Positions 1-48,939 of a stretch of 48,939 bases of DNA are shown piece after piece (the stretch's first letter is position 1; every line of letters begins with the position of its first letter). A program made the position numbers and the translations under genes. This DNA comes from Escherichia phage vB_EcoS_PHB17. Location of the stretch: sequence record NC_054892.1; one strand, 5' to 3'. The notes beneath the pieces were generated by a model that saw only the letters and a list, made by a program, of their open reading frames with translations, had not been told where the DNA came from and ran no database searches.

Positions 1-142
1 GTGAAACCTGGTCTGCTTGAGTCAACTTTTCGCTCGCGTCACGGTGTCTTGTCTGCTTTTGTTCTATCGCGTTCACGTGTTAACCATCCGCAAAAAACGG
101 AAACAAAAAAATACAAATAGAATCCTATAACATACTAAAAAA

Positions 143-194
143 TAAGAGTATTTTATTTATATATATCTAAATATAGTTATTTGTTCACAGTGTT
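143..194. repeat. AT-rich element, copy A
   Basis: TAAGAGT..TTATTTATATATATCTA..TTGTTCACAGTGTT, shared with 30147-30200. Confidence 0.65.
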
Positions 195-199
195 CCATA

Positions 200-310
200 G
201 GTATATGGATACCCCCATATCATTTATGATTATGGTGGGTATCCATGGTTAATAAATGAACTGTTGCGCTCGCCAGGTTACATATACATATAATAGGGGG
301 TATATGGCGC
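200..310. repeat. cluster of direct and inverted GC-rich repeats
   Basis: GGTATATGG at 200 and 299; GGATACCCCCATA (207-219) imperfectly inverted as TATGGTGGGTATCC (231-244). Confidence 0.6.
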
Positions 311-490
311 AAACTCCGCAAATTAGGAACACGATTTGTAAAACACTGAAATGTAAGAAATTAAACGCTGAAACGCGTGCGCAAATTTAAAAAATCGAGT
401 TGTGAACAATCATAGACGATAAAAAACAGTTGACACGACATTAATCCACCAGCATAATGCAGCCGTCCCAACCAATCAGGAGGAAACACG

Positions 491-958
491 ATGCAAGAAC
501 AAACATTTAGCGACAATCTGCGTGGTGCGGCTCGCGCCTTGGCAAGTGGCGAGAAGGATAAAATCGTTATCCCATCCGGCGTAATTGAAATGGTTCTGGC
601 GGGCAAGAGCGCGGCTAAAAATCCAGCAAGCTATATCCGCACGACGATGAACCGAGTGCCGGAGGTGAAAGCTGTCGGCTCAATCAAGATCAAGAAAAGC
701 TATTGTGAGGATGAGGATAGCGATCACTACGGAAGTGACATTTACACACTTACGATTGTAAAAGGCGGTCGCAAAACGGTTTACACAAAGGCAGACGTTG
801 AGCGCATCAAGGCGCAAGCGGTAAGCAAGGCGGTTGAGCGATTCTTAACGCTATCCCCTAGCCTGGCAAACTACACACAAGAAGAATACGCCACTGTTGC
901 AAAAGTAATGGGCGAGATTAACGCGCTCGTTAAGGTTAACTTTGAGGTCGAGGAGTAA
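491..958 (+). CDS. hypothetical early protein (155 aa)
   Basis: ORF with AGGAGG about 8 nt upstream of ATG; first gene after the noncoding hub. Confidence 0.6.
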   Translation: MQEQTFSDNLRGAARALASGEKDKIVIPSGVIEMVLAGKSAAKNPASYIRTTMNRVPEVKAVGSIKIKKSYCEDEDSDHYGSDIYTLTIVKGGRKTVYTKADVERIKAQAVSKAVERFLTLSPSLANYTQEEYATVAKVMGEINALVKVNFEVEE

Positions 959-963
959 TCACA

Positions 964-1209
964 ATGCAATACATGAAAATCAAGCAAATGACAGACGACG
1001 CAATCAAAACCGCCTCCGCAGAGGGGAGGCTATTCAGGCTCGTAAGGTCGAATAAATCAATGCCCCTGAAAGTAAAGCCATTCGAATTGCATAAACCTGG
1101 ATGTAAATGCACAAGCGATGGTGGCGATTATTGGCCTGACTGCATGAATACCATCAACATTGCAAGGGCGGCGATTAAGAAAGGTAATTTATTCCTGGGG
1201 GTGAAGTAA
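964..1209 (+). CDS. hypothetical protein (81 aa)
   Basis: ORF; GAGGAG upstream; tightly packed after previous gene. Confidence 0.5.
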   Translation: MQYMKIKQMTDDAIKTASAEGRLFRLVRSNKSMPLKVKPFELHKPGCKCTSDGGDYWPDCMNTINIARAAIKKGNLFLGVK

Positions 1210-1529
1210 TGCAAAAGTTCAAAGTGGTGTTAGGCGCAATCATGGTTGTTGCTGGCGTCGTCATGCTGACTGGTTGCGACGGCGACACCAGGACGCCGGA
1301 ACATGCACGCATCAAAATGCAGGTTGAAACGGGAGCAGATCACAACCGCGTTAGCGTGCGCAAGTTGACAGAGTTTGCTGACGGCCTGGCGTACAACGAC
1401 AAGCGCGGGATTTACCTTATCACCGATAAGCAAACGGGCAAGGAATACATTGGCGTTTCTGGTGTCGGTATCACCGAAACAGGATCGCACGCTTGCGGAA
1501 AGGGTTGCACACGCCAGGATGAGCGATAG
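1209..1529 (+). CDS. putative lipoprotein (106 aa)
   Basis: N-terminal hydrophobic segment ending in lipobox LTGC followed by Asp at +2 (CDGD); start overlaps previous stop. Confidence 0.6.
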   Translation: MQKFKVVLGAIMVVAGVVMLTGCDGDTRTPEHARIKMQVETGADHNRVSVRKLTEFADGLAYNDKRGIYLITDKQTGKEYIGVSGVGITETGSHACGKGCTRQDER

Positions 1530-1545
1530 CACTTTTTGTTAAAAC
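1526..1545 (+). promoter_or_regulatory. conserved motif copy ATAGCACTTTTTGTTAAAAC
   Basis: Begins on TAG stop of lipoprotein gene; followed by hairpin GGGGTT..AACCCC containing TATAGT. Confidence 0.5.
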
Positions 1546-1600
1546 TCGATCAGGGGGTTGCGATATAGTAACCCCATCGAAACGAAACGAGGATTGCAAA

Positions 1601-1759
1601 ATGGTTACTCTGATTACCTGGGAACACGAAAACAGCCAGCCGGAAGCACGCGAGTTTGAAACGGTTGCTGCTTGCTATCACCTGGCGGCGAATGGCGGTT
1701 TTTACAAGGCGCAGATTGTTAACGAATTTGGAGTTGTTGATTATGAGTTCCACGCCTGA
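1601..1759 (+). CDS. small hypothetical protein (52 aa)
   Basis: ATG 1601 with GAGGA upstream, sits downstream of motif plus hairpin module; below ORF-track size cutoff. Confidence 0.3.
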   Translation: MVTLITWEHENSQPEAREFETVAACYHLAANGGFYKAQIVNEFGVVDYEFHA

Positions 1760-4032: not shown

Positions 4033-4611
4033 ATGGCTAAAATCATCGTACTGAATGCACCGCCAGGAGCGGGAAAGGACACAATCGGAGGGCTGGTTAA
4101 AGATGAGTCGCCAGTGCCTTTGCGCCTGTTGAGCTTCAAAGAGCCAATGTTTGAAATTGCGCTCGCTATCCTGGGGCCTGGTAAGTATCGCGATTTCTTG
4201 ACGGCATACAACGACCGCGAGCAGAAAGAAAAGCCGCATGACTTCCTGAATGGTATGACTTGCCGCGAGTTCATGATCTGGATTAGTGAGGACGTGATGA
4301 AGCCGCGATTTGGTAATGGGTATTTCGGCAAGCGGTTTGCAGAGGAAGCGGAGCGCAACGACATTCCAGTTATTTGCACCGATGGCGGATTCCCTGACGA
4401 AATCATAGAGTTAATACGTGGCGGTCATGAGGTGAAAGTTTGCCGACTACATCGCCAGGGTTACACCTTTCAGGGAGATAGCCGCGATTACATCCGAATC
4501 AGTAGCGCGCGCGACAACGCCAGTGGATGCCGTGAATATGATTACACGTTGACGGATGGCAATCCAATGCAAACGGTGCGTCAAATTATCGCTGACCACC
4601 TGGCGAAATAG
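4033..4611 (+). CDS. P-loop nucleotide kinase (dNMP kinase-like, 192 aa)
   Basis: Walker A NAPPGAGKDT close to N-terminus, resembling phage deoxynucleoside monophosphate kinases; AAAGGAG RBS. Confidence 0.6.
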   Translation: MAKIIVLNAPPGAGKDTIGGLVKDESPVPLRLLSFKEPMFEIALAILGPGKYRDFLTAYNDREQKEKPHDFLNGMTCREFMIWISEDVMKPRFGNGYFGKRFAEEAERNDIPVICTDGGFPDEIIELIRGGHEVKVCRLHRQGYTFQGDSRDYIRISSARDNASGCREYDYTLTDGNPMQTVRQIIADHLAK

Positions 4612-4627
4612 CACGAATTGCTAAAAG
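4608..4627 (+). promoter_or_regulatory. conserved motif copy ATAGCACGAATTGCTAAAAG
   Basis: Overlaps TAG stop of kinase gene; TATAAT at 4646-4651. Confidence 0.5.
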
Positions 4628-4681
4628 CGTGGCGAAAGGCTCCGCTATAATGCACACATACCAACAAAAGAGGAACACAAG

Positions 4682-8897: not shown

Positions 8898-8923
8898 TAA
8901 CCCCGCGTTTGCGGGGTTTTTTA
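8898..8923 (+). terminator. rho-independent terminator
   Basis: CCCCGC-GTTT-GCGGGG stem followed by TTTTTT. Confidence 0.8.
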
Positions 8924-8965
8924 TTGCCTGTTATAATCGGACTCCAACAAAGGAGGGCAATTATC

Positions 8966-9487
8966 ATGGCTAAAAACGTCGAACCTGCTGTAAAGGCATT
9001 GAATTTTAAAGAGCTATACAATAAGAAATATGGCGACATTGCGCGATTGAGCAACGCGCACACACTTACGCCGGAGCAAGTTTTTGATCTGGCGGTTCGC
9101 TATTTTGAATGGGCGGAAAAAAATCACATTGAAGCGGCGGAAACTGCATCCTTTCAGGGCGATGTATACGAATCAAAAATCCATAAGCCGCGAATCTTTA
9201 CCCTTAACGGCTTGCGCCTGTTTTGCGGATTCTCTGAGGCCGTTACTCTGAAATGGCGCAGGGAGCCAGGATTCAGCGAAGTGATGGAATTCATCGACAC
9301 GGTAATCAATGAGCAGAAATTCCAGCTTGCGGCGAATAACCTTGTAAACGCCTCGTTTATCGCCAAAGATATTGGCGTTGATAAGCCAGCAAGCATTAAC
9401 GTTGAAGCAAACGCAAACGCCAGCGTTGACGCAGTGACGGCGGAAGAAGTAAAAGACGCGGTGCGGGATATCTTAGGAGAAATCTGA
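8966..9487 (+). CDS. putative terminase small subunit (173 aa)
   Basis: ATG 8966 after AAGGAGG; sits immediately upstream of terminase large subunit; assigned by position only. Confidence 0.5.
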   Translation: MAKNVEPAVKALNFKELYNKKYGDIARLSNAHTLTPEQVFDLAVRYFEWAEKNHIEAAETASFQGDVYESKIHKPRIFTLNGLRLFCGFSEAVTLKWRREPGFSEVMEFIDTVINEQKFQLAANNLVNASFIAKDIGVDKPASINVEANANASVDAVTAEEVKDAVRDILGEI

Positions 9488-9489
9488 TC

Positions 9490-11058
9490 ATGCTTATTTG
9501 GGAAGATTTGACAGCGGCGCAGAAACGCGCCATTAAAGAAATGAGCGAGCTTTCATTTGAAAAGATGATCCGCATATGGTTTCAACTCCTGCAAGGCCAG
9601 AAGTTTTTAAGCAACTGGCATTTCAGCTACCTATGCAGTGAGGTAGAGAAAATCATTTCCGGCGAATCGCAAAACGTGATCTTTAACATCACGCCAGGTT
9701 CGGGTAAAACGGAAATCTTTTCGATCCATATGTCGCCGTATGCGTCAATCAAAAGCAAAAAGGTGCGCAACCTTAATCTTTCGTTTAGTGATGGCCTGGT
9801 GCAACAGAACAGCAACAGGATCAAGGAGATTGTTGGATCTCCAGAGTGGCAAGAGTTATGGCCTGGCAAGCTGGCGAAAGCCAGCGCCAAAGATCTGATT
9901 GTGCAGGACGAAAACGGGAAAGTTAAGTTGCAGGTGAATTCCCGTTCAATTGGTGGACAGGTTACGGGCTTGCGTGGCGGCTATATGGATGATGGTTTTA
10001 CGGGGATGTTGGTACTTGACGATCCAGACAAACCAGATGATATGTTTTCGAAGGTGCGCCGTGAAGCAATGCAAATGCGCCTAAAAAACACCGTGCGATC
10101 ACGTCGAATGAAAGACACAACGCCAATCGTAATGGTTCAGCAGCGGCTACACGTCAATGATTCTACTTACTTCATGACAAGCGGCGGCATGGGCGGCATT
10201 CAGTTTAAAGTTGTGAGCATTCCGGCGCTAGTTACGAAAGAATACCGCGAAACGCTTCCTGAGTGGTTAATTCCTGAATTTGATCGTGATGTGCTGACAA
10301 GCGAGCCTGTTTATATTGACGGCGTGGCGCATTACTCTTTTTGGCCTGCAAAGGAGAGCGCAAAAGACCTTTTAGCGCTACGCGAGGCCGACCCATACAC
10401 TTTTGCATCACAGTATCAGCAGCATCCTATAGCGTTAGGCGGCAACGTGTTTAAAGTGGATTGGTTCCAGTATTACGGCGACGGCGAGAAATGCACGCTA
10501 CCAAAACCGGAACGCTTTGAGTACACATTTATTACGGCGGATACAGCGCAAAAAGTAGGCGAGCTAAACGACTACACTGTTTTCTGTTATTGGGGCATGT
10601 ACAAAAACCGCGTTTACTTCATTGATGGCGTGCGCGGCAAATGGGAAGCGCCAGACCTTGAAACAAACTTTGTGGCTTTCGTTAATCAGTGCTGGAAGCG
10701 CAACAAAGAATGCGGCTCCTTGCGTAGAATCCACGTCGAGGATAAAGCGAGCGGAACGGGCTTGATTCAGGGGGCAAAGAAAAAGATCCCTATTGATATA
10801 AATCCCGTTCAGCGCAACACGGACAAAGTAACACGCGCGATGGATGCAGCACCAGTTATGAGGGCGGGGCGCGTTGCATTGCCTGAAAACCATCCAATGC
10901 TTGCGGAGCTACTCGCAGAGGTGGCTGCGTTCACGTTCGATGATTCTCATCCAAACGACGATATCGTTGATAACATCGTTGATGCGGTCAACGTGGAAAT
11001 GAACCTCGCAGACGATCCGGTTGCACGCATGAAAAAACTGGCTGGATTGAAGAAATAG
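9490..11058 (+). CDS. terminase large subunit (522 aa)
   Basis: ATPase P-loop TPGSGKTE in N-terminal half, acidic nuclease-type C-terminal half; first of packaging/head genes. Confidence 0.85.
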   Translation: MLIWEDLTAAQKRAIKEMSELSFEKMIRIWFQLLQGQKFLSNWHFSYLCSEVEKIISGESQNVIFNITPGSGKTEIFSIHMSPYASIKSKKVRNLNLSFSDGLVQQNSNRIKEIVGSPEWQELWPGKLAKASAKDLIVQDENGKVKLQVNSRSIGGQVTGLRGGYMDDGFTGMLVLDDPDKPDDMFSKVRREAMQMRLKNTVRSRRMKDTTPIVMVQQRLHVNDSTYFMTSGGMGGIQFKVVSIPALVTKEYRETLPEWLIPEFDRDVLTSEPVYIDGVAHYSFWPAKESAKDLLALREADPYTFASQYQQHPIALGGNVFKVDWFQYYGDGEKCTLPKPERFEYTFITADTAQKVGELNDYTVFCYWGMYKNRVYFIDGVRGKWEAPDLETNFVAFVNQCWKRNKECGSLRRIHVEDKASGTGLIQGAKKKIPIDINPVQRNTDKVTRAMDAAPVMRAGRVALPENHPMLAELLAEVAAFTFDDSHPNDDIVDNIVDAVNVEMNLADDPVARMKKLAGLKK

Positions 11059-28617: not shown

Positions 28618-28648
28618 AAAAAGGCTCCCTATTGGGAGCCTTTCTTTT
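28618..28648. terminator. bidirectional rho-independent terminator
   Basis: AAAGGCTCCC-TATT-GGGAGCCTTT with A and T tracts; between convergent J-like gene and minus-strand operon. Confidence 0.8.
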
Positions 28649-28973
28649 ATTCAACAATAAAGTCTTTCTGTTGATATCGTCCAGGTTGACGCGCCAGCAT
28701 GTTCATTTCCAAGCCGCCTTTAACAAACTTCATTGTTATATCGTACTTGTTTTTATCCTTAAAGCACATCACAGCAACGTTTTTCTTTACGTGGCGAGTG
28801 AAATAAAAGTGAGAGGATTCCAGAATATCAATCTTCTTGTTTTCGCAATCAAGTTTGAATCTTGTCTCACCAGTCAGAGAGAGTCGCGCAGCCGGAACGG
28901 GAAAACCGATTTGCATATTAAGAGCAAGCGCGTTTGAGGCAAAGATCATTAAAGCAAGTGCAAACCATTTCAT
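28647..28973 (-). CDS. small secreted protein with signal peptide (108 aa)
   Basis: Internal start MKWFALALMIFASNALA with perfect AAGGAG RBS; the longer track ORF extends upstream without RBS. Confidence 0.55.
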   Translation of the reverse strand: MKWFALALMIFASNALALNMQIGFPVPAARLSLTGETRFKLDCENKKIDILESSHFYFTRHVKKNVAVMCFKDKNKYDITMKFVKGGLEMNMLARQPGRYQQKDFIVE

Positions 28974-28983
28974 AATATTCTCC

Positions 28984-29634
28984 TTAGTTGTAACCCTGAA
29001 ATTTAGCCAGTGGCAAACGGAAGTTACCGCGCCCGTTAAACACTTCCGTGAATTTCTTTTGATACTTTGACACATAACCAAACTGGATTTGCGATCCCGT
29101 CCACTTAACACAAAGACCTGAATAACCAACAACAGTTCCGTCGTCCGAAAGGTTGCCAGGGCATTGATTCCAAAGGAAAAACGGATTAAAGCCAGGAGCA
29201 AGACTGTACACGTTAGCATTCAGATCGTAATTCTGAGCAATATCAACATATTTCAGAATTCGCGGCATTGTGGAGGCGCTTTTTGCTGACCATATCATTT
29301 TCCCTGTAGAGTCGAAAACATCAAGAAAGCCAGTCTCAATAGATTTGTTTCTTGTCGTCCTGATAACTCTAAAAGTTCCAGGCTTAAACATGCTTGCACC
29401 AGGGAAACACCACGCATTATTAGTGGTTAACTGAATCCAATATAGGCAATCAACGCGCTTACTCCAGTTAAAGGCGGTGAAACCCAATTCGCTTAAATTT
29501 CCGAATGGTGTGGTTTGGTTATACGCTCCAACCTCAACAATCCCAGGGGTATCAACCGCATCAAAAAGCGTATGCACCTGATCGGAGTTAATAATTGTTG
29601 AGCCGTCATTGTTTAACACTTCAAAACCAGACAT
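28984..29634 (-). CDS. hypothetical protein, possible receptor-binding / tail accessory (216 aa)
   Basis: ORF with GAGGTG RBS; convergent with the J-like gene. Confidence 0.45.
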   Translation of the reverse strand: MSGFEVLNNDGSTIINSDQVHTLFDAVDTPGIVEVGAYNQTTPFGNLSELGFTAFNWSKRVDCLYWIQLTTNNAWCFPGASMFKPGTFRVIRTTRNKSIETGFLDVFDSTGKMIWSAKSASTMPRILKYVDIAQNYDLNANVYSLAPGFNPFFLWNQCPGNLSDDGTVVGYSGLCVKWTGSQIQFGYVSKYQKKFTEVFNGRGNFRLPLAKFQGYN

Positions 29635-29643
29635 TAGATCACC

Positions 29644-29955
29644 TCAAATAAATTGATAAACCTCAATTGTTAATTTCTCCGCGTACAATGTATTTCCAGT
29701 CGGAAGGTAAATAACATCAACGCCGTTTGTTTTTGTCTTTGCATAAAACTGAATAAAACCCAATCCACCGGAGGAATCAGTTGCAGTTATCGCAGCAAAT
29801 GAATTGTTTCCGTTTATACCGTTCACGGCGAATGACGACACGTTTTGCCCTTTCGGAAATGTGATCGTGTACTTCCCGACAAATTTTACCGTGTAATCAC
29901 CGAGATCGACAATCAAGTTGCCTGACGCATCCCAGGCTTGCAAACCCGCTGGCAT
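29644..29955 (-). CDS. hypothetical protein, possible tail accessory (103 aa)
   Basis: ORF with AGGAGG RBS; first gene of the minus operon, downstream of a motif copy. Confidence 0.45.
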   Translation of the reverse strand: MPAGLQAWDASGNLIVDLGDYTVKFVGKYTITFPKGQNVSSFAVNGINGNNSFAAITATDSSGGLGFIQFYAKTKTNGVDVIYLPTGNTLYAEKLTIEVYQFI

Positions 29956-30013
29956 GTTATCGCCTCCTATCTGTTAATCAATGCCGTAACTATAACACCA
30001 AACGGCGCGGCGG

Positions 30014-30031
30014 TTTAGCAAAAAGTGCTAT
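30014..30031 (-). promoter_or_regulatory. conserved motif copy upstream of minus-strand operon
   Basis: Reverse complement ATAGCACTTTTTGCTAAA; TATAGT about 22 nt downstream on minus strand, then AGGAGG and ATG. Confidence 0.5.
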
Positions 30032-30146
30032 TTGTTTTCTTTTGTTCCAGCGTGTTCATGAATTTGCGGAGGCGTAAATTTAGCTCAAAAAATCGCCATC
30101 CAGCGAGCAATAAGCATACAGTAAATATTACTATACACATGAAAAT

Positions 30147-30200
30147 TAAGAGTTTATTTATTTATATATATCTATTTGTTTTCTTTTGTTCACAATGTTT
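30147..30200. repeat. AT-rich element, copy B
   Basis: TAAGAGTTTATTTATTTATATATATCTATTTG..TTGTTCACAATGTT; roughly 80 percent identical to copy A by eye. Confidence 0.65.
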
Positions 30201-30402
30201 CATATTCTTTTGGTTGGTTGCGGTGATTTCTATCATTGTCATGGTCACTTTACTGGTATGTGTGTCTATCTATAGGATGCGGCGTAAATCAGTGAACAAG
30301 GTAAACACAAAAACAACAAAGCCAAAATCAAGCACTTAGATTGCATTTTTGTTGTCTTCAACCATTAAAAACGCAAGGGAACAAAAAATAACAAGATATC
30401 TA

Positions 30403-30430
30403 TTGACTAAATACACAAATTGGCTAGAAT
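30403..30430 (+). promoter_or_regulatory. sigma70-like promoter TTGACT-N16-TAGAAT
   Basis: Hexamers with 16-nt spacer about 30 nt upstream of exonuclease start. Confidence 0.5.
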
Positions 30431-30458
30431 TCTGTTAAAACAACACGGAGAGCATGAA

Positions 30459-31517
30459 ATGACTGATTTTAAAGTTTTCACCAGCGCGGAATTGAGTAAC
30501 GACGAATATCACGATCCTAAAGGTTGGGCGGCGGAGTATGTAAGCGGCTCAAGCCTAGCAGAAATCCACGCAGGTTGCCCGGCTGCATGGCGATTCCGTC
30601 AACGCGAGGAAAACGCAAAGCCTCTTATTTTCGGCACGCAGTCACACACCAACTTTGAAAGCGCGGAGCTATTCGCAAAAACTTACCGCCGTGCTCCAGA
30701 TCCGGAAGATTACAAAGACCTGATCACAAGTCAGACGGCATTAGCAAGCAAGTTGAAATCATTCGGCCTGAAAGGTACGACGGGGAAAACTTATCCAGAA
30801 CTAATCAAAATGATGGTTGATTGCGGTGAAGATCTTAATGTGCTTTGGCTGATTGAAATGATCGCAGAGTCACAAGCCAGGGCCGATGGCGTGGAACTAG
30901 TAGAGGCTAAAGATTACGACGCTTGCGTTACGATGCGTAAAGTGCTGGAAAGCATACCGGAACACAACGCTTGCATGAACAGCCCAACAGCACAACGCGA
31001 GCTTTCAATTTTCGGCGTGATTAATGGCGTCAAAGTTAAAGTGCGATTGGATCACGTTGATGTGTGCAAGCACGTAACCGCAACGCTTATCACTGGTTAC
31101 GACGAAAAAGGCCAGCCGATTTGTGAGGATATCATTTATCCAGAGGCAATCGTAATCACTGACTATAAGACGACACAAAGCGCGAACCCTCTTGAGTTCC
31201 CGCGCTTGGCATTCAATCACGGCTATTACTTGAAAATGGCGTTGCAGCACGATCTATTCAAGAAAGCGTATCCAGAAGAAACGCGGCCTGTAGTTGTCAG
31301 ACTGTTGGCGCAGGAGAAGAAAGAGCCGTTTTTACCACTGGCTTTCCGCATGAGTAGCGAGCAATTGAAGATCGGGCGGTTGCAGTACATGAGCGTAATC
31401 AACACCTTTGCAGTGTGTAACGAGCATGACGTTTGGCCTTCATACGCAAACGGAGCGCCAGAGATTGAGCTTGATACGCCTGATTGGGTGCGCAAGCAAT
31501 TCAAAGGCTTTTTGTAA
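30459..31517 (+). CDS. PD-(D/E)xK family recombination exonuclease (352 aa)
   Basis: ATG 30459 after GGAGAG; ITDYKT nuclease motif; paired with Erf and SSB genes. Confidence 0.7.
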   Translation: MTDFKVFTSAELSNDEYHDPKGWAAEYVSGSSLAEIHAGCPAAWRFRQREENAKPLIFGTQSHTNFESAELFAKTYRRAPDPEDYKDLITSQTALASKLKSFGLKGTTGKTYPELIKMMVDCGEDLNVLWLIEMIAESQARADGVELVEAKDYDACVTMRKVLESIPEHNACMNSPTAQRELSIFGVINGVKVKVRLDHVDVCKHVTATLITGYDEKGQPICEDIIYPEAIVITDYKTTQSANPLEFPRLAFNHGYYLKMALQHDLFKKAYPEETRPVVVRLLAQEKKEPFLPLAFRMSSEQLKIGRLQYMSVINTFAVCNEHDVWPSYANGAPEIELDTPDWVRKQFKGFL

Positions 31518-32748: not shown

Positions 32749-34899
32749 CTTATTGACAAGTTGAGAAACAATGGCTTTTAACTCCTCAACTTCTTTCTCA
32801 AGGTTTGCGATCCTTTCCTTGTTCGCTTCGTCACGCGCACGCAATGCCTTAATCGCTGCAAGACCATCCAAAAGCATTGGCGTCTGGTCAAGGTGATAAT
32901 AATCTCCGACTTTCCAGACGTATTCTTTATCGATCTTCATAATCTGCTGACTAATGACGCCGCGACGGGCGCTACGATCAGGCGCGTCATCCTTGAATCT
33001 GAACAGCTTAAACTCCATTCGATTCACGTTATCTAACGCACCCTCAAGGTTAAGGTTACCTTTAATGTCCTTCAGGGTCTCATCTGATACAGCCGATGTT
33101 GTCACCTTAACCCAATCTCGCCACGTTGTAGACAGATCATCGCCAGCGCGTGAGTAAAGTTCGTTTGTGACCTTGTTCCAACAAAGCTGCCCGGTATAGT
33201 TACCAGAAACGCGATCAGGGCCTCGACCGAAAGAAGTTAAGATCCCGAAACCGCTAAAAGGAATTCCGTCGGCGGTTGTTGTTGCGTTAGTAAAAGTCCT
33301 AAACTCCGTATTTCTTCGGGAGTTGGCGTTCAACTGACCAGCGGCGCTAGTGAAGTAAGCAACGTTAACCATCATTTCACCGCTAATCTGAGCAAACGGA
33401 ATTCTTATTTGCCCGGCTTTGTTGCCATCCCTTCTTCTTGCAATAAGAGATGGAACAGCACCAGACTGCGGGCCGAGTTCGAACATCGCCCTTGAGAATA
33501 AATCGGTCTCCGCCCTATCGGTATTATCAATAATAAAGGCGGGATATCCACCATGTTCAGCAACAAAATCACCTCCCTTCGCCCTGACGTTGCCATCATT
33601 AATATTAAGATCGCCGCCGCCATAAATAAGAGTCCCGGCGCTAATAGTCATCTTTCCTTTAGCGATCGTCGAACTTCCTTCCGCTACGTAGATCCTTGCG
33701 TCATAGTCATTCCCAGTCCCAGATGAATGGAAGTCGATAAAAGCAGGCGTTTTTGTCGTCACGCTTCCAAGTTCAACTCCAGTATCGCCAGTGTTTTGGC
33801 TTCCTACCTGAAGGCCGCCAGTTAAAATATATTGTGAACCAGTCCAGCTATTGGAAGTATTTAATAACGGGATAGTGCCGCCAGACGTTCCGATATTATA
33901 AGTTGATGCGCTGCCAAGACCTAAATTTGTGCGTGACAATGCCTTATCAGCAACGTCTGAAAGGTTATTCTCTTTCTGCATCAACTTGCTTGTTTCGAAA
34001 GAATCCGCCAAGCGTTGAGCTCGATCAGCTTCGTTTTTCGCAGTAGTCGCAGAACCAGCGGCGGCAGTTGCAGAACCAGCGGCGGCAGTCTTAGACGCAT
34101 CAGCGGATTGCGCAGATTGCGCGGCCTGATTCTTTGACGTGTTTGCGGCTGTTTCGCTCGCCTTTGCTTTTGTCTCGCTGGTCTTAGAGTTAGTCTCGCT
34201 TGTCTTTGCGGCTGTTGCAGATGCGGCGGCGGCTGTCTGGCTTGCCCTTGCTGCATTCTCTGACGCTTTCGAGTTTGTTTCACTGGTTTTCGCGGCTGTC
34301 TGGCTTGCCTTTGCTGCATTCTCTGACGCTTTGGAGTTTGTTTCACTGGTCTTTGCGGCGGCTTGTGATGCAGCGGCGGCGATCTGGCTTGCGCTTGCTG
34401 AATCCTGGCTAACCTTCGAGGCGTCCTGGCTTTTCTTCGCTTCCGTTTGGCTTGTCTTTGCTGCAACCTCTGACGCTTTGGCGTTGGTGGCGGCTGTTTC
34501 AGCTTTGGCGGCATTTTGCTTTGTTGATTCGTCCAGCGCTTCCAGTTTTTTCCAGTCGAACGTTTTAAGGAATTCAACAAATTCCTCATACATCGTTTCT
34601 TTCCCCTGGTAGTATCGCAGCGTTTCAGCAACATCTTGTGCCAGGCCATCAACGGTGATTGAGTCATGCAGCAGGATCACATAATCAGTGCGATCAATAA
34701 CAGCACCTCCCGTAGCGGTTGCACGGATTGACGTGTCGCTAATCACTTCTGAAATTGTTGCGTATGTTGCTGGGCTTGTTGCAAACACGATTGTTGCACC
34801 TGAGCGAATCAGGGTTAACTGATCGCGCCACGATGTGTTATAGCCTGTAATGTAGCCTTGAGCGTCCATTGACGCTTGCCCCTTACGATAAATAGACAT
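32746..34899 (-). CDS. tail fiber protein with C-terminal intramolecular chaperone domain (717 aa)
   Basis: 21-aa Ala/Lys/Thr/Ser repeats, Gly-rich middle, C-terminal self-cleaving chaperone-like domain; AGGAG RBS. Confidence 0.75.
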   Translation of the reverse strand: MSIYRKGQASMDAQGYITGYNTSWRDQLTLIRSGATIVFATSPATYATISEVISDTSIRATATGGAVIDRTDYVILLHDSITVDGLAQDVAETLRYYQGKETMYEEFVEFLKTFDWKKLEALDESTKQNAAKAETAATNAKASEVAAKTSQTEAKKSQDASKVSQDSASASQIAAAASQAAAKTSETNSKASENAAKASQTAAKTSETNSKASENAARASQTAAAASATAAKTSETNSKTSETKAKASETAANTSKNQAAQSAQSADASKTAAAGSATAAAGSATTAKNEADRAQRLADSFETSKLMQKENNLSDVADKALSRTNLGLGSASTYNIGTSGGTIPLLNTSNSWTGSQYILTGGLQVGSQNTGDTGVELGSVTTKTPAFIDFHSSGTGNDYDARIYVAEGSSTIAKGKMTISAGTLIYGGGDLNINDGNVRAKGGDFVAEHGGYPAFIIDNTDRAETDLFSRAMFELGPQSGAVPSLIARRRDGNKAGQIRIPFAQISGEMMVNVAYFTSAAGQLNANSRRNTEFRTFTNATTTADGIPFSGFGILTSFGRGPDRVSGNYTGQLCWNKVTNELYSRAGDDLSTTWRDWVKVTTSAVSDETLKDIKGNLNLEGALDNVNRMEFKLFRFKDDAPDRSARRGVISQQIMKIDKEYVWKVGDYYHLDQTPMLLDGLAAIKALRARDEANKERIANLEKEVEELKAIVSQLVNK
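34140..34360. repeat. 63-bp tandem repeats (about 3.5 copies) inside tail fiber gene
   Basis: Near-identical units starting at 34231 and 34294 with diverged flanking copies; encode 21-aa repeat AAKTSETNSKASENAAKASQT. Confidence 0.75.
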
Positions 34900-35002: not shown

Positions 35003-35950
35003 CTAAAGGAAAGTTTCAGGCTTATACAGCTTTCTTTCTATCCCTTGTTTGAAATTATCGTTAATCGGGATCATCACGTCAAGTTCTCTTTCTTCGGCGG
35101 CAATCAACACATCCTGATCGGTAGACTTGCACACTACGCGCATTTTTCTGTTTCCTTTATACCTGTACGCCACGATCTCAAGATTGTACTGTGAGAAACA
35201 ACACCAAACCTCTTGCCCCGTCGAAAGGTGGATATGTTGAGCATCAACCCAATCAACGCACAAATAGATCGTGTTTTCAGTTTTGCCAGTCACCGCAACT
35301 GAGCCGCGCGTGTAATCCTTCGCATAAAAACTTTGCTTGCCGTTCTCATCAATGAAAAGGATGTTACACATTTCATCATCAAGTTCATCGTCATGCACCA
35401 GGTAGCACGGTATGGCGTGAATAAGCGATTCTCCGCCATTCTCAAGCGTTTTAACGCCTACGGAATACATTTCATCACCAGGAAGTGCTATCCCTTCAAA
35501 AACGCTTAGAGGCGTCTTACTGCGTAATTCCGTGCGCTCCATTACAGAGGCGCAATTCTCATGCGGAGCCTGAGATCCGAAAGTGTAACCGGATGCACGG
35601 CTTGCACGCTTATTGGCCTTTATCCGGTACTCTTGCGGAACCTTTCCGAGAAAGCGACCCAGGATGTTAATTACTTCGCTGTATGGCTCTCCTGTTAGCT
35701 TCATCATCCAGCCCACGCCGGAATCGTTACCACAGCCGTTGCACACCGCGCCGCCGTCGCCGTCCTGACTCAATTTGTCAGTCCACCTAAAACGGTCTTT
35801 ACCTCCGCAATTAGGGCAGGGCTGGTGCTTTTTGTTGAAAACATCCGAGCTTAAACCGCATATTGACTGCAACGCATCGCGCCACAACCCTTTCATATAC
35901 GGTAAAACCTCCTCTTTCTGAAACATCATGTTTTCGTTAATGTCGCTCAT
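35003..35950 (-). CDS. DNA primase-like protein with zinc ribbon (315 aa)
   Basis: CPNCGGKDRFRW ... CNGCGN zinc-ribbon motif near N-terminus. Confidence 0.6.
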   Translation of the reverse strand: MSDINENMMFQKEEVLPYMKGLWRDALQSICGLSSDVFNKKHQPCPNCGGKDRFRWTDKLSQDGDGGAVCNGCGNDSGVGWMMKLTGEPYSEVINILGRFLGKVPQEYRIKANKRASRASGYTFGSQAPHENCASVMERTELRSKTPLSVFEGIALPGDEMYSVGVKTLENGGESLIHAIPCYLVHDDELDDEMCNILFIDENGKQSFYAKDYTRGSVAVTGKTENTIYLCVDWVDAQHIHLSTGQEVWCCFSQYNLEIVAYRYKGNRKMRVVCKSTDQDVLIAAEERELDVMIPINDNFKQGIERKLYKPETFL

Positions 35951-36006: not shown

Positions 36007-36450
36007 TTAGCTATTTGTGCTGTTTTCAAAGTCGGACGCACGAACAACGCGGAGCATTTCGCGCTTTTCACACTTGAGTGTAAGCGGTTTTCCGTTGCTA
36101 TCAAATTTCAGATCTGGGCGGCAGAATGAAGCGCGATAACCCTTGCAGCCTTGCCGCTTGTAATCTTGATGCACCTTTTGAGCGCCTTGCGCTGAAATCA
36201 TTCCGCGTTTCTTCCATTGCTGGATCGTCTGAAACGACACTTTAAGGCGGCGTGCCATTTCTGATTGAGTGCCATAATATTCTAACAGGATGTCAAGCCG
36301 CGCACGCAATCCGGCCTTTACTTCATCTTTCAGCACGTAGTAACCTGTTTTGCGGCGGCGTGGCTTTTTGTCTTTTCCGCGTCGAGTTCCGTTATTACCA
36401 TTGATTGTGCGTTTATCTACTTCACCAGTTGAAACAGCGATTCTTTTCAT
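36007..36450 (-). CDS. helix-turn-helix DNA-binding protein (147 aa)
   Basis: HTH segment QSEMARRLKVSFQTIQQWKKRG; basic N-terminal region; start at MKRIAVS. Confidence 0.6.
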   Translation of the reverse strand: MKRIAVSTGEVDKRTINGNNGTRRGKDKKPRRRKTGYYVLKDEVKAGLRARLDILLEYYGTQSEMARRLKVSFQTIQQWKKRGMISAQGAQKVHQDYKRQGCKGYRASFCRPDLKFDSNGKPLTLKCEKREMLRVVRASDFENSTNS

Positions 36451-36463
36451 AGTAAATTCCCCA

Positions 36464-36483
36464 ATAGCACTTTTTGTTAAAAT
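36464..36483 (+). promoter_or_regulatory. conserved motif copy ATAGCACTTTTTGTTAAAAT
   Basis: In divergent region between HTH gene and helicase; TGTAGTATAGC downstream. Confidence 0.5.
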
Positions 36484-36539
36484 CACTTATGTTTAGGCTT
36501 GTAGTATAGCGTCAAACGAAACAACGTTAAAGGTTTAAA

Positions 36540-38542: not shown

Positions 38543-38962
38543 ATGGTTACTGACAAGGGCGATTATCTGGAGTATTACGAGCGCGATCCGAGCGACACGC
38601 GAAAGGAAGATTCTCACCAGGTTGATTGTGTGGCGTGGTTGCGCCACTTTTATCCCTGGCTTTTATTCTGGCATACAGTAAACGAGGGGCAAAAGACGAT
38701 CACCAGCGCATTGAGGGATGAGCAAGCAGGATTGAGAAAGGGCGTTAGTGATTTCGTTATCCTGATTGGTATTAACAGCCGTTACCCATTCGCGGCTATT
38801 GAACTAAAGCGCGTAAACAAGTCTGGTAAAGGCAAGGCGTCACCAGTCAGCGACGAACAAAAGGGATTTTTACGCGATGTTCGCCAGCGTGGAGGATTCG
38901 CGGCGGTGGCTTACGGATTCGAGCAATTCAAATTAGCGATTGCAGATCTTTTGCATAAATAG
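38543..38962 (+). CDS. VRR-NUC domain nuclease (139 aa)
   Basis: DFVIL ... ELK PD-(D/E)xK-type motif; GGGAG RBS. Confidence 0.6.
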   Translation: MVTDKGDYLEYYERDPSDTRKEDSHQVDCVAWLRHFYPWLLFWHTVNEGQKTITSALRDEQAGLRKGVSDFVILIGINSRYPFAAIELKRVNKSGKGKASPVSDEQKGFLRDVRQRGGFAAVAYGFEQFKLAIADLLHK

Positions 38963-38978
38963 CACGAATTGCTAAAAC
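38959..38978 (+). promoter_or_regulatory. conserved motif copy ATAGCACGAATTGCTAAAAC
   Basis: Overlaps TAG stop of VRR-NUC gene; hairpin GGCGCA..TGCGCC then CATAAT. Confidence 0.5.
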
Positions 38979-39148
38979 AGGCGCAACGGAATGCGCCATA
39001 ATGCACACATCGAAACAAACAAGGAATTAATCATGAAATACATTTTTAATATGGCGGCAAGCGTTGTATTGGGAGCGGCGGTTACTGCTTTCTTTTTGTG
39101 GGTTATCTCCCTGGCTGGCAACTTTAACGGATTTTGAGGATCAGAAAA

Positions 39149-43756: not shown

Positions 43757-45337
43757 TCACCCCAGCAATGATGGATTCACAAACACGCGCCCATTGATAA
43801 CGCAAACATAATTTCGTTCTTCCAGCATTGGGAGTAAGTTTTCCTCAATGCGTTTCATGATTCCGGCTTGCCCCAGGAACGGCTTAACCTTGCGTGCGCT
43901 TTCGTAAATTGCGCGAACCGTTAAGATCCCTTTGTTTGCTTTACCGTGGCGAGTGATGATATCAATCAGCTTTGACATTTCCGCATCGTCACCAGCGTGA
44001 CCGGAGGCATTCGCCGCGCTAATGTAAGTTTTGCTCAATTCCTGGAACATGATCAAAGCCTCTTGCATCGTTTCAACTTCAATTTCACGCGCCTTTTGTG
44101 GTGAACCGTTCTCATTGAACCAGTTACGGATTACATGCAGAACGGATGCAATGCGGATCACTTGCTTATCCATTTTACCCAGCGCACCGCGTAGCATCGT
44201 GTGTGAGTATTTTCCGCCGTCTGCTAAATCCGGCTCCATTTCCTGACGTGCGCGATTTAGGCAACGCATAGCCGCTTTGCTGATCTTCAATGAAACATCC
44301 ATTTCCGACATGATGTTATGAACAAGTTGGTAATATTGCGCTTTCAGTGTCGGATCAACAGGTTCAAACGTTGAATCACCTTCATCATCAATAAAGGTTC
44401 GACGGCCTAAAAATGATTCCTCGCGAACAAGTAAGAAACGCTCACTAACACCTATACCGCGTGAACCAGCCTCCATGATACCATTTATTGTTTCATCCTG
44501 AGCGATCACACTCATGCAACCAAGCGCCTTAAAACTCATGTTGTTTTCAGCGTTTGCACGCGCGATAGAAACGTGTCCAGCATCCCAGGCTTTAAGAACC
44601 AACTCACTGTTAGTTTTTCGCTCGCTGTTGGCGTAGGTCAAACCCAAAAGGCTGTTAATACTCGTTGCCTCATCCGAGATTACCGCAAAGTTTCCTTGAC
44701 GGTTGTTAATCTTTGCCAAACCTTCTGGCGTGGTATCAGACACCGGAAACACAACGTCGCACAGCTTTTGCAACTTCTCCTCTAACTCCTCTTTTTCTTC
44801 GTAAAGAGCGGCCATATCAGAACCGGATCGCTCGCTTTTCATTTCTTTAGCAAGGCCAGCCAGTTTAGCCAGAATCTTTTTGCGCTCTTTCTTGCGTTGT
44901 TCGTTGATTCGCTCAACTTCGCAAACCATCGGAGCAATCGCCAGACTATTGATCGCAGATTTACCAGTTGACGGCGGCTGGCTCGTTACAACGTAAAGCG
45001 CGGTTGGCTGGTCGGTTCCATGATAATCAACAGTAAAGCGTCCGAGCATTGCAGCAGAAATGCAGCCTACAAAGTGCATATAGGCAGACGAAACAGGGAA
45101 TTGCACAGAGTTTGCAATGTTGCGTGACAGCTTGCCAACAACATCAACGTCATTCCCCAAAGAGATCACAGGGTAGCGGTCATTGCCTGAGTTAACATCT
45201 TGAACATCGCTCCAGAAACTTGATGATTGGCGGTAGCCGTTTGCGTTGATTGCCACACGCAGAGGTGAAACGCCCAGGCTTTCAGCGGTATCAATAATGT
45301 CTTTCGGTGATAAGCGTTTTTGTTCAAAATCGTACAT
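43757..45337 (-). CDS. P-loop NTPase of unknown function (527 aa)
   Basis: Walker A QPPSTGKS and Walker B AVISDEAT; start MYDFEQ with AAAGGAG RBS. Confidence 0.6.
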   Translation of the reverse strand: MYDFEQKRLSPKDIIDTAESLGVSPLRVAINANGYRQSSSFWSDVQDVNSGNDRYPVISLGNDVDVVGKLSRNIANSVQFPVSSAYMHFVGCISAAMLGRFTVDYHGTDQPTALYVVTSQPPSTGKSAINSLAIAPMVCEVERINEQRKKERKKILAKLAGLAKEMKSERSGSDMAALYEEKEELEEKLQKLCDVVFPVSDTTPEGLAKINNRQGNFAVISDEATSINSLLGLTYANSERKTNSELVLKAWDAGHVSIARANAENNMSFKALGCMSVIAQDETINGIMEAGSRGIGVSERFLLVREESFLGRRTFIDDEGDSTFEPVDPTLKAQYYQLVHNIMSEMDVSLKISKAAMRCLNRARQEMEPDLADGGKYSHTMLRGALGKMDKQVIRIASVLHVIRNWFNENGSPQKAREIEVETMQEALIMFQELSKTYISAANASGHAGDDAEMSKLIDIITRHGKANKGILTVRAIYESARKVKPFLGQAGIMKRIEENLLPMLEERNYVCVINGRVFVNPSLLG

Positions 45338-45391
45338 CTGAAATTCTCCTTTCTTGTTGCCGCTAAGTATAACGGCAACAATACTACCCTG

Positions 45392-45410
45392 TTTTAACAA
45401 AAAGTGCTAT
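45392..45410 (-). promoter_or_regulatory. conserved motif copy, minus strand
   Basis: Overlaps TAG stop of 45407-45652; hairpin GTTGCCG..CGGCAAC with TATACT, then AAAGGAG and ATG 45337. Confidence 0.5.
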
Positions 45411-48716: not shown

Positions 48717-48773
48717 TTCCGTTTTCCTCAATTCTTTTCGATGAAGTAACTATACCAAATCCGATCCGATCCG

Positions 48774-48792
48774 TTTTAGCAAAAAGTGCTAT
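48774..48792 (-). promoter_or_regulatory. conserved motif copy, minus strand
   Basis: Upstream of first gene of minus early operon (ATG 48716). Confidence 0.5.
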
Positions 48793-48827
48793 TGATGGAT
48801 TGAGTGCGTTTTAACCACTTTCCAGCA

Positions 48828-48892
48828 CTGTTGCAGAATCTGAAATGATAGCCGCTTATTGTTGCACATCATGCAAGATAGTGATTGTTGCA
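48828..48892. repeat. three spaced copies of (A/C)TGTTGCA
   Basis: Copies at 48828-48835, 48858-48866, 48884-48892, spaced 26-30 bp; a TGTTGCG at 262-268 lies across the window junction. Confidence 0.55.
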
Positions 48893-48939
48893 GTTAGTGA
48901 AACAATCCTAGGTGATTATTACTGATTGTGAGGGGAATC

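Follow-up and report, generated by a model that had tools for sequence, protein, structure and literature searches.

Why does a phage carry, twice and 30 kb apart, an AT-rich sequence of about 50 bp, and what does this sequence do? The question arises for Escherichia phage vB_EcoS_PHB17 (PHB17; sequence record NC_054892.1), in which one copy lies upstream of recE and the other near the left end. The stretch analysed (the window) is the whole 48,939-bp genome, to which all position numbers refer. It looks complete and belongs to a T1-like siphovirus of the Drexlerviridae, near Changchunvirus and Tlsvirus; around recE, its closest relatives in GenBank are 76-84% identical to it. Genes from 491 to 28615 point rightward, those from 29955 to 28647 leftward, those from the start of recE at 30459 onward rightward again, and those from 48731 to 43236 leftward. 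Thus, there are two large divergent non-coding regions, one between the minus-strand genes and recE (29956-30458) and one formed by 48732-48939 joined to 1-490.

The 50-bp element consists of the AT core and the heptamer pair beside it, both parts of a non-coding module about 400 bp long that is present twice in the same orientation. In what follows, module i is the left-end copy (about 48-458) and module ii is the copy upstream of recE (about 30031-30430). We propose that both modules are replication origin regions of the iteron type, each with an early promoter coupled to it, a proposal that in our judgment could equally well prove right or wrong. It is based on the layout of the modules, in which a putative unwinding element is bracketed by inverted, phased and lineage-specific repeats (the standard design of an iteron origin), and on a precedent in phage P4.

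From the repeated element to a paired module

The original prediction, made without database searches, described an AT-rich island upstream of recE with an element at 30147-30200 that recurs at 143-194. The island is readily seen: GC content is 0.31-0.35 across 29950-30399, compared with 0.40-0.50 on either side. The best ungapped pair (repeat family D14) matches 152-199 with 30157-30204 at 81% over 48 nucleotides (nt), a gapped local alignment runs from 125 to 199 and from 30131 to 30204 (76 columns, 79%), and a looser alignment reaches 49-199 and 30032-30204. The predicted coordinates fall within the gapped alignment, and the strings quoted for the two copies are indeed present, TTATTTATATATATCTA in both, TTGTTCACAGTGTT at 181-194 and TTGTTCACAATGTT at 30186-30199. 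The alignment score of 66 is above those of all 1000 dinucleotide shuffles (22.3 +/- 2.5, maximum 36) and also above those of all 1000 shuffles within 40-nt blocks, which preserve local AT-richness (24.8 +/- 3.5, maximum 47); thus, AT-richness alone does not explain the repeat. Related phages, where the prediction expected the element to recur, do contain it: the region upstream of recE has matches in 174 phage records, which in 113 cases cover 80% or more of its length, and the left-end copy has matches in 92. Most of the 174 records leave the region unannotated or fill it with inconsistent tiny open reading frames (ORFs).

The repeat of about 50 bp is therefore real, but its extent was under-described, as the shared unit is the colinear module of about 400 bp, including a promoter. 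When the 470 nt upstream of recE are aligned for 12 diverse relatives, conserved blocks appear in a fixed order with variable spacers between them, and the lengths of the indels in the spacers are not divisible by three. The left-end region repeats this series block by block, and it also aligns colinearly with both modules of phage TLS (block coordinates are given in Table 1). TLS and T1 have two colinear modules each, at the same two genomic positions as in PHB17. In all 13 genomes that offer both module regions, modules i and ii align with each other at 71-79% over 76-218 nt, and the alignment is always centred on the AT core and T-block 2. The CCGCAA box occurs four times in the PHB17 modules, compared with 0.2 expected. 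At the right edge, the recE promoter is kept in 11 of the 12 relatives with 10-11 of 12 consensus positions. The equivalents of the two module promoters in TLS, P01 and P51, are two of only three sigma-70 promoters found by the authors of the TLS study (PMC11447400, Supplementary Table S1). A further sigma-70 promoter inside the AT core was considered and rejected, there being only weak 8-of-12 matches at inconsistent positions.

The left boundary of module ii can be placed at 30014, where similarity to the closest relatives begins exactly at a 21-nt repeat followed by T-block 1. Genes to the left of this point vary by phage, with a minus-strand accessory cluster in PHB17 and a terminator after the tail-fibre gene in TLS. 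Module ii is thus conserved across a mosaic junction.

Duplex instability and phased heptamers

Two properties set the modules apart from the rest of the genome, the first being the stability of the duplex. AT cores i and ii have 40-mer stabilities of -36.5 and -38.4 kcal/mol, some 4.5-5 standard deviations (SD) from the genome mean of -55.9 (SD 3.9); the next-best site in PHB17 is at -42.5. The two AT cores are the two least stable segments genome-wide, at both 40 bp and 100 bp, in PHB17, TLS and T1 alike. The position is also fixed: in 44 of 45 recE loci of 6 kb, the 40-mer with the lowest stability is found 310-376 nt upstream of recE.

The second property is a short repeat. Exact TGTTCAC occurs nine times in the PHB17 genome, four of them in the modules (0.2 expected), a result with which k-mer enrichment agrees. 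Each module has one plus-strand and one minus-strand copy (182 and 402 in module i, 30187 and 30292 in module ii), the minus-strand copies being read on the plus strand as the complement GTGAACA (30292-30298 in A-block 2 of module ii). TLS is similar, with eight exact copies genome-wide and four in its modules (0.2 expected). The shorter unit TGTTY is phased: pairs at 9-11 nt spacing number 12 in the PHB17 genome, of which six are in the modules (0.24 expected), and block-shuffled modules give 0.14 (maximum 3 in 1000).

The heptamer is not the same in all lineages. T1 modules are without TGTTCAC and use TGTAACA instead, and all six genomic copies of that heptamer are inside the modules (0.1 expected). 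Across the 45 loci, the repeat upstream of recE is GAACA or GAAACA in Tempevirinae, and the T1 group has GTTACA or GATTAC in its place. The switch happens in concert by lineage, at the same block positions and in both modules. In the left-end module of a distant relative, L111 (IMGVR_UViG_3300048919_000084, locus 800-1700, reverse strand), there are at least 12 exact TGTCCC/GGGACA hexamers of a TGTCCCA type; these form phased pairs placed symmetrically on either side of the AT core, and a further inverted pair straddles the -10 of a sigma-70 promoter. L111 has the clearest layout of iterons plus operator seen in the family.

Each module thus contains a discrete, easily melted AT-rich segment flanked by enriched, phased short repeats, as an iteron origin does; in PHB17 the copy number is low, about five per module when one mismatch is allowed. 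Since the sites co-vary within a genome and yet differ between phages of the same host, their sequences argue for a phage-encoded, sequence-specific protein as the heptamer binder, rather than a host factor such as IHF, Fis or H-NS.

Table 1. Coordinates of the module features, the adjoining repeat and the two replication genes discussed in the text
Feature	Position	Strand	Sequence or remark
T-block 1, module i	48-84	+	CTTGTCTGCTTTTGTTCTATCGCGTTCACGTGTTAAC
CCGCAAA box, module i	86-98	+	Colinear alignment
A-block 1, module i	99-120	+	GGAAACAAAAAAATACAAATAG
AT core, module i	135-180	.	CTAAAAAATAAGAGTATTTTATTTATATATATCTAAATATAGTTAT; least stable 40-mer of the genome
T-block 2, module i	181-199	+	TTGTTCACAGTGTTCCATA; exact TGTTCAC at 182
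Hairpin-forming inverted repeat	207-244	.	GGATACCCCCATA...TATGGTGGGTATCC; in the variable spacer of module i; read from sequence
CCGCAAAT box and A-block 2 (AGGAACACGATTTGTAAAACAC), module i	314-346	-	Colinear alignment
A-block 3, module i	399-429	-	GTTGTGAACAATCATAGACGATAAAAAACAG; directly upstream of the -35; GTGAACA at 402-408 is the complement of TGTTCAC
Sigma-70 early promoter, left operon	430-458	+	TTGACA, 17-nt spacer, CATAAT; equivalent of TLS P01
21-nt direct repeat copy (aaATAGCACnnnTTGnTAAAA)	30014-30032	-	Faces the minus-strand genes; marks the left boundary of module ii; repeat family D10
T-block 1, module ii	30031-30060	+	TTTGTTTTCTTTTGTTCCAGCGTGTTCATG; TGTTY units 10 nt apart (phased pairs 30033, 30043); conserved in 12 relatives
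GCGTAAAT box copy 1 (GGCGTAAAT)	30071-30079	+	Recurs at 30279-30289, and as CCGCAAA(T) in module i
A-block 1, module ii	about 30105-30121	+	Degenerate in PHB17 (GAGCAATAAGCATACAG); nAACAnAAAnAACA in relatives, directly left of the AT core
AT core, module ii	30139-30175	.	ATGAAAATTAAGAGTTTATTTATTTATATATATCTAT; candidate DNA-unwinding element; left half of the originally predicted element
T-block 2, module ii	30176-30204	+	TTGTTTTCTTTTGTTCACAATGTTTCATA; exact TGTTCAC at 30187 and phased TGTTY pairs; right half of that element
Variable spacer, module ii	30205-30278	+	G+T-rich and C-poor on the plus strand; indels in relatives not multiples of three
GCGGCGTAAAT box copy 2, then A-block 2 (CAGTGAACAAGGTAAACACAAAAACAACAA)	30279-30319	-	Heptamer units in inverse orientation; conserved in relatives
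Exact IHF core consensus AATCAAGCACTTA (WATCAANNNNTTR)	30326-30338	+	9 genomic matches, 4.6 expected
T-block 3, module ii	30346-30356	.	TTTTTGTTGTC; alignment of relatives
A-block 3, module ii	30377-30395	.	GGGAACAAAAAATAACAAG; heptamer-like unit nearest the promoter, beginning about 24 nt before the -35
Sigma-70 early promoter, recE-erf-ssb operon	30403-30430	+	TTGACT, 16-nt spacer, TAGAAT; equivalent of TLS P51
Primase	35003-35950	-	Homologous to the N-terminal primase domain of P4 alpha; Pfam Zn_Ribbon_Prim
DUF3987 helicase	43757-45400	-	Predicted C-terminal winged-helix domain in the last ~80 residues; candidate heptamer binder

Proposed function as origin regions

The original prediction left a choice of three readings for the element: a regulatory site, a replication-associated sequence or a DNA-bending element. 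A cis-acting, protein-binding element is what the results support, with replication as the favoured role; regulation at the adjacent early promoter may apply as well. A scheme for protein binding, melting and origin activity can be inferred from the layout. A sequence-specific protein of the phage would bind the phased TGTTCAC and GTGAACA units, which lie in inverted orientation on both sides of the core. The unstable AT core between the bound units would then melt, and the module would act as an origin region composed of iterons and an unwinding element. Origin activity would be coupled to early transcription through the units nearest the promoter and through the sigma-70 early promoter itself, at the right edge. 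The two modules might serve as two origins, or as an origin and an enhancer in the manner of P4 ori and crr. A candidate for the binder is the DUF3987 helicase, which could contact the heptamers with its C-terminal winged helix.

A broader version of the proposal, which we hold tentatively and consider somewhat doubtful, is that all Drexlerviridae including T1 replicate from two paralogous modules, each about 400 bp long and fused to an early promoter, with 30 kb between them. The lineage-specific heptamer iterons would be read by a split P4-alpha-like machinery, with a separate primase and a DUF3987 helicase that has its own winged-helix origin-binding domain, and the modules would act jointly (like ori and crr, or as two bidirectional origins) and time early transcription.

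T1 belongs to the seven classical T phages and the Drexlerviridae to the coliphages that are isolated most often, yet two recent genome papers found no replication origin for T1-like phages (PMC11447400; PMC7718038). The authors of the TLS study looked for lambda-type iterons and found none, nor any iterons elsewhere in TLS (PMC11447400). Our literature search, which did not cover the 2004 T1 genome paper, found no description of the modules. Iterons with an unwinding element are a well-known kind of element; new in this variant are the two full-length paralogous modules fused to early promoters, the 7-bp lineage-specific units and the lack of a recognisable initiator homologue. The modules offer a precise and testable origin candidate, with set coordinates, heptamers to mutate, and natural specificity variants in T1 and TLS. 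If the proposal is true, the origin or origins of the family would be identified, along with a new initiator-iteron pairing for the widespread DUF3987 helicases, and the long conserved regions upstream of two of the three sigma-70 early promoters would be explained. Engineering of T1-like phages would benefit too, as would annotation of a region that in most records is empty or filled with spurious small ORFs.

Comparison with known systems

The closest specific precedent for the modules is ori and crr of phage P4. In the P4 GenBank record, the octamer TGTTCACC (variant TGTTCACA) is annotated as 'ori type 1 repeat' in these two separate cis regions, and 13 of the 15 TGTTCAC copies in the P4 genome lie within them. 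The P4 alpha protein reportedly binds the type 1 repeats. As in PHB17, two separate cis regions contain a short repeat that occurs in either orientation and is phased at 10-11 nt, with AT-rich DNA between the repeat clusters; the heptamer itself is, perhaps by chance, the same, P4 TGTTCACC/TGTTCACA corresponding to TGTTCAC(A) of PHB17. The proteins are alike in part: an alpha-type primase is present in PHB17, matching residues 20-263 of alpha in BLASTP at 24% identity over 257 amino acids (aa; E = 4e-15) with Zn_Ribbon_Prim in both. In alpha, the helicase is followed by a C-terminal origin-binding domain of winged-helix type (PMC2777425), an order that is also predicted for the DUF3987 helicase. 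There are differences as well. In PHB17 the DUF3987 helicase is encoded by a gene separate from the primase, with no detectable Pox_D5 domain or superfamily 3 (SF3; D5_N/DUF5906) helicase; the modules have about two exact repeats each, compared with 6-10 in P4; and they are full-length paralogues, promoter included, at a distance of 30 kb rather than the 4.5 kb of P4.

In the pri-rep-ori segments of phage-inducible chromosomal islands (PICIs), including Staphylococcus aureus pathogenicity islands (SaPIs), two sets of short iterons flank an AT-rich putative melting site, and the primase homologue and the initiator are separate proteins (PMC6092414). The PHB17 modules share the arrangement of iteron sets around an AT-rich site. 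Unlike the PICI origin, which comes immediately after rep, they are separated from the primase and helicase genes by 3.5-14 kb, are each joined to an early promoter, and occur in two copies per genome.

The lambda origin is located inside the O gene and has four tandem iterons of 18-19 bp, whereas the PHB17 units are 7 bp long, form inverted arrays and are intergenic. In lambdoid phages more generally, lineage-specific iterons for the O protein are found beside an AT-rich region, and the origin depends on nearby transcription (summarised in PMC11447400). The likeness to PHB17 is that lineage-specific repeats adjoin an AT-rich region in both. Finally, the Bacillus phage SPP1, a pac-type siphovirus, is reported to have two related initiator-binding origin regions (oriL and oriR) about 30 kb apart; its initiator G38P and the boxes bound are unrelated.

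Candidate binders and points against an origin

A PDB sequence search with the DUF3987 helicase, the candidate binder, gave no match. A comparison of winged-helix sequence with motif type at 80 helicase loci found that all differences follow phylogeny. We dropped the idea that the helicase C-terminus is a specific structural match to the P4 origin-binding domain, as the modelled domain gives generic winged-helix matches only. The helix-turn-helix (HTH) 'transcriptional regulator' at 36007-36486 (minus strand), encoded upstream of the primase, was also tried as the binder and rejected, since its recognition helix is the same in PHB17, TLS and T1 despite their different heptamers; its overall similarity does not track heptamer type either. 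This protein is a better candidate for the conserved 21-nt repeat described below.

Several points weigh against an origin, a function that we infer from the features described above. There are only about two exact and three one-mismatch heptamers per module, compared with 6-10 repeats in each of P4 ori and crr, and the identity of the heptamer with that of P4 may be a coincidence, as sister lineages use other heptamers. No homologue of the Pox_D5 origin-binding domain or the SF3 helicase of P4 alpha was found in PHB17 with Pfam, BLASTP, tblastn or phmmer. In the model of the winged helix, the third helix is acidic and hydrophobic, so the domain could be one for protein interaction. Whereas the origins of PICIs and many phages adjoin such genes, neither the primase gene nor the helicase gene is next to a module. 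GC skew gives no independent support for an origin because it tracks gene orientation; skew of either kind, GC or AT, was therefore dropped as evidence. Lastly, each module terminates in an early promoter whose -35 closely follows heptamer units, and a promoter-linked layout of this sort, especially with the operator-like pair at the -10 in L111, fits purely transcriptional control almost as well, though the two roles are not mutually exclusive.

Alternative explanations

The last point leads to the main alternative, which we nevertheless think unlikely on balance: the modules could serve transcriptional control only. A phage regulator would act on the heptamer arrays to switch the two early promoters on or off, possibly with IHF-assisted looping, and the AT core would be a flexible or curved spacer, or a UP-like element, with no part in replication. 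Each module does end in one of the only three sigma-70 promoters in the phage family. In both modules, the heptamer-like unit of A-block 3 begins some 24-28 nt ahead of the -35, module ii has an exact IHF core in the interval between its promoter and the distal arrays, and the inverted TGTCCC/GGGACA pair of L111 is placed as an operator would be. However, the third sigma-70 early promoter (the equivalent of TLS P57, near 36500) is without such a module, and no heptamer overlaps a core promoter in PHB17. Nor would a regulator require that the two least stable stretches of the genome be fixed about 250 bp upstream and symmetrically bracketed by inverted repeat pairs. Transcriptional control is in any case compatible with origin function. 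Iteron-binding initiators commonly autoregulate.

The next alternative, which we consider improbable, is that the region is a landing pad for host factors or simply curved AT-rich DNA (IHF, Fis, H-NS, or a UP-element effect), with no phage-specific binder. The region is indeed extremely AT-rich. Module ii has an exact IHF core, the ATCA...CTTA positions of which are conserved in relatives and in TLS module i. In some relatives an exact IHF core even abuts the AT core; this is so in both modules of L009, L013 and related loci (Hanrivervirus-like), where it reads AATCAATAAGTTA, and at the left edge of the PHB17 AT core a one-mismatch version is found (AAATTAAGAGTTTA). The original prediction named IHF and Fis as proteins to try in gel shifts, but they are at best accessory. 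The exact IHF core of module ii is outside the 50-bp element, and in PHB17 module i the core is absent, the site being unrecognisable. The T1 repeat blocks are not A-tracts. The site of a host protein should stay fixed, whereas the heptamer differs between lineages that share a host (GTGAACA, TGTAACA, TGTCCCA).

A link with packaging (a pac site) or with recombination hot spots is very improbable. A few hundred bp separate module i from the first position of the record, which is the conventional starting point for pac-type T1-like genomes, and TLS packages by a pac-initiated headful mechanism (PMC11447400). Module ii, however, is in mid-genome, 30 kb away, and no second pac site is known; the modules adjoin early promoters rather than the terminase genes (8909-11058). 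A different repeat, TTGTTGCA(C/G), with three copies about 30 nt apart at 48828-48895, is nearer the end of the record and is a better candidate. These copies, which lie upstream of module i, may be a pac site or a recognition site of the small terminase.

A small membrane protein, made from the ORF at 30025-30339 or as 66 aa from an internal start at 30139, is a highly improbable product of the region, and so is a structured RNA. In favour of these readings, the translated sequence is hydrophobic and ends in a basic tail, and the T-blocks and A-blocks are mutually complementary. Yet the first of these properties follows from T-rich DNA being succeeded by A-rich DNA, and the reading frame is not conserved, on which ground the protein was rejected: among 27 relatives the ORFs vary in frame, position and length, one relative has none, the closest breaks the 104-aa frame, and indels between relatives are not multiples of three. 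The suspicion voiced in the original prediction that the 104-aa ORF is a compositional artefact is thus borne out. For RNA, including hairpins between T-blocks and A-blocks, RNAalifold gives a consensus of -1.8 kcal/mol with an unfavourable covariation term of +0.97. With negligible folding energy, no covariation and no Rfam match, this reading was also rejected; moreover, there is no conserved internal promoter, and a terminator directly precedes the module in TLS.

Hardly credible, finally, is a host DnaA-dependent, oriC-like origin with TTGTTCACA as a DnaA box beside an AT-rich 13-mer-like sequence: TTGTTCACA is one position off TTATNCACA and ATCTATTTGTTTT resembles the familiar oriC 13-mer consensus, but we rejected this reading because TTWTNCACA is absent from both strands of the 48.9-kb genome (6.0 +/- 2.3 expected from shuffles), the CACA part of TTGTTCACA is not conserved in relatives, and there is no GATC from 29908 to 30512, hence no GATC cluster in module ii. 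As a separate matter, the genome-wide absence of consensus DnaA boxes may reflect avoidance of DnaA binding.

Other repeats and neighbouring genes

The other conserved intergenic repeat of the family is the 21-nt direct repeat aaATAGCACnnnTTGnTAAAA, of which one copy abuts module ii. A consensus and a distance of about 76 nt to start codons have been described for this repeat in TLS and T1, and its function is listed there as an open question (PMC11447400); the copy at 30014-30032 is about 79 nt from the ATG at 29955. It differs from the module repeats in sequence, in having about 20 dispersed copies, each upstream of a -10-like hexamer, and in being unchanged between T1 and TLS. Membership of the 50-bp element in this family was considered and rejected, as there is no match to aaATAGCACnnnTTGnTAAAA within the element. 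Among the approximately 20 PHB17 sites are 2030-2051, 4608-4629, 38959-38980 and 48774-48794 (minus strand). The repeat includes the inverted half-sites TAGCA-N5-TGCTA and is about 23 nt upstream of a TATAAT-like hexamer with no -35, and so looks like an activator-dependent promoter with a dimer site near -41.

Within module i, the sequence ATAGGGGGTATATGG at 293-307 is related to the strong hairpin at 207-244, and module ii has no equivalent of either. To the left of module ii, in the accessory cluster, the 190-aa ORF at 28647-29219 (minus strand) probably starts internally at MKWFALALMIFASNALA, a signal peptide; annotations in relatives at this place include Cor or superinfection-exclusion proteins and outer-membrane proteins. 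To the right, at 34040-34490 (minus strand), tandem repeats of 21, 42 and 147 nt within a tail-fibre gene of 717 aa encode an Ala/Ser-rich repeated segment (ASETAAKTSETNSK...).

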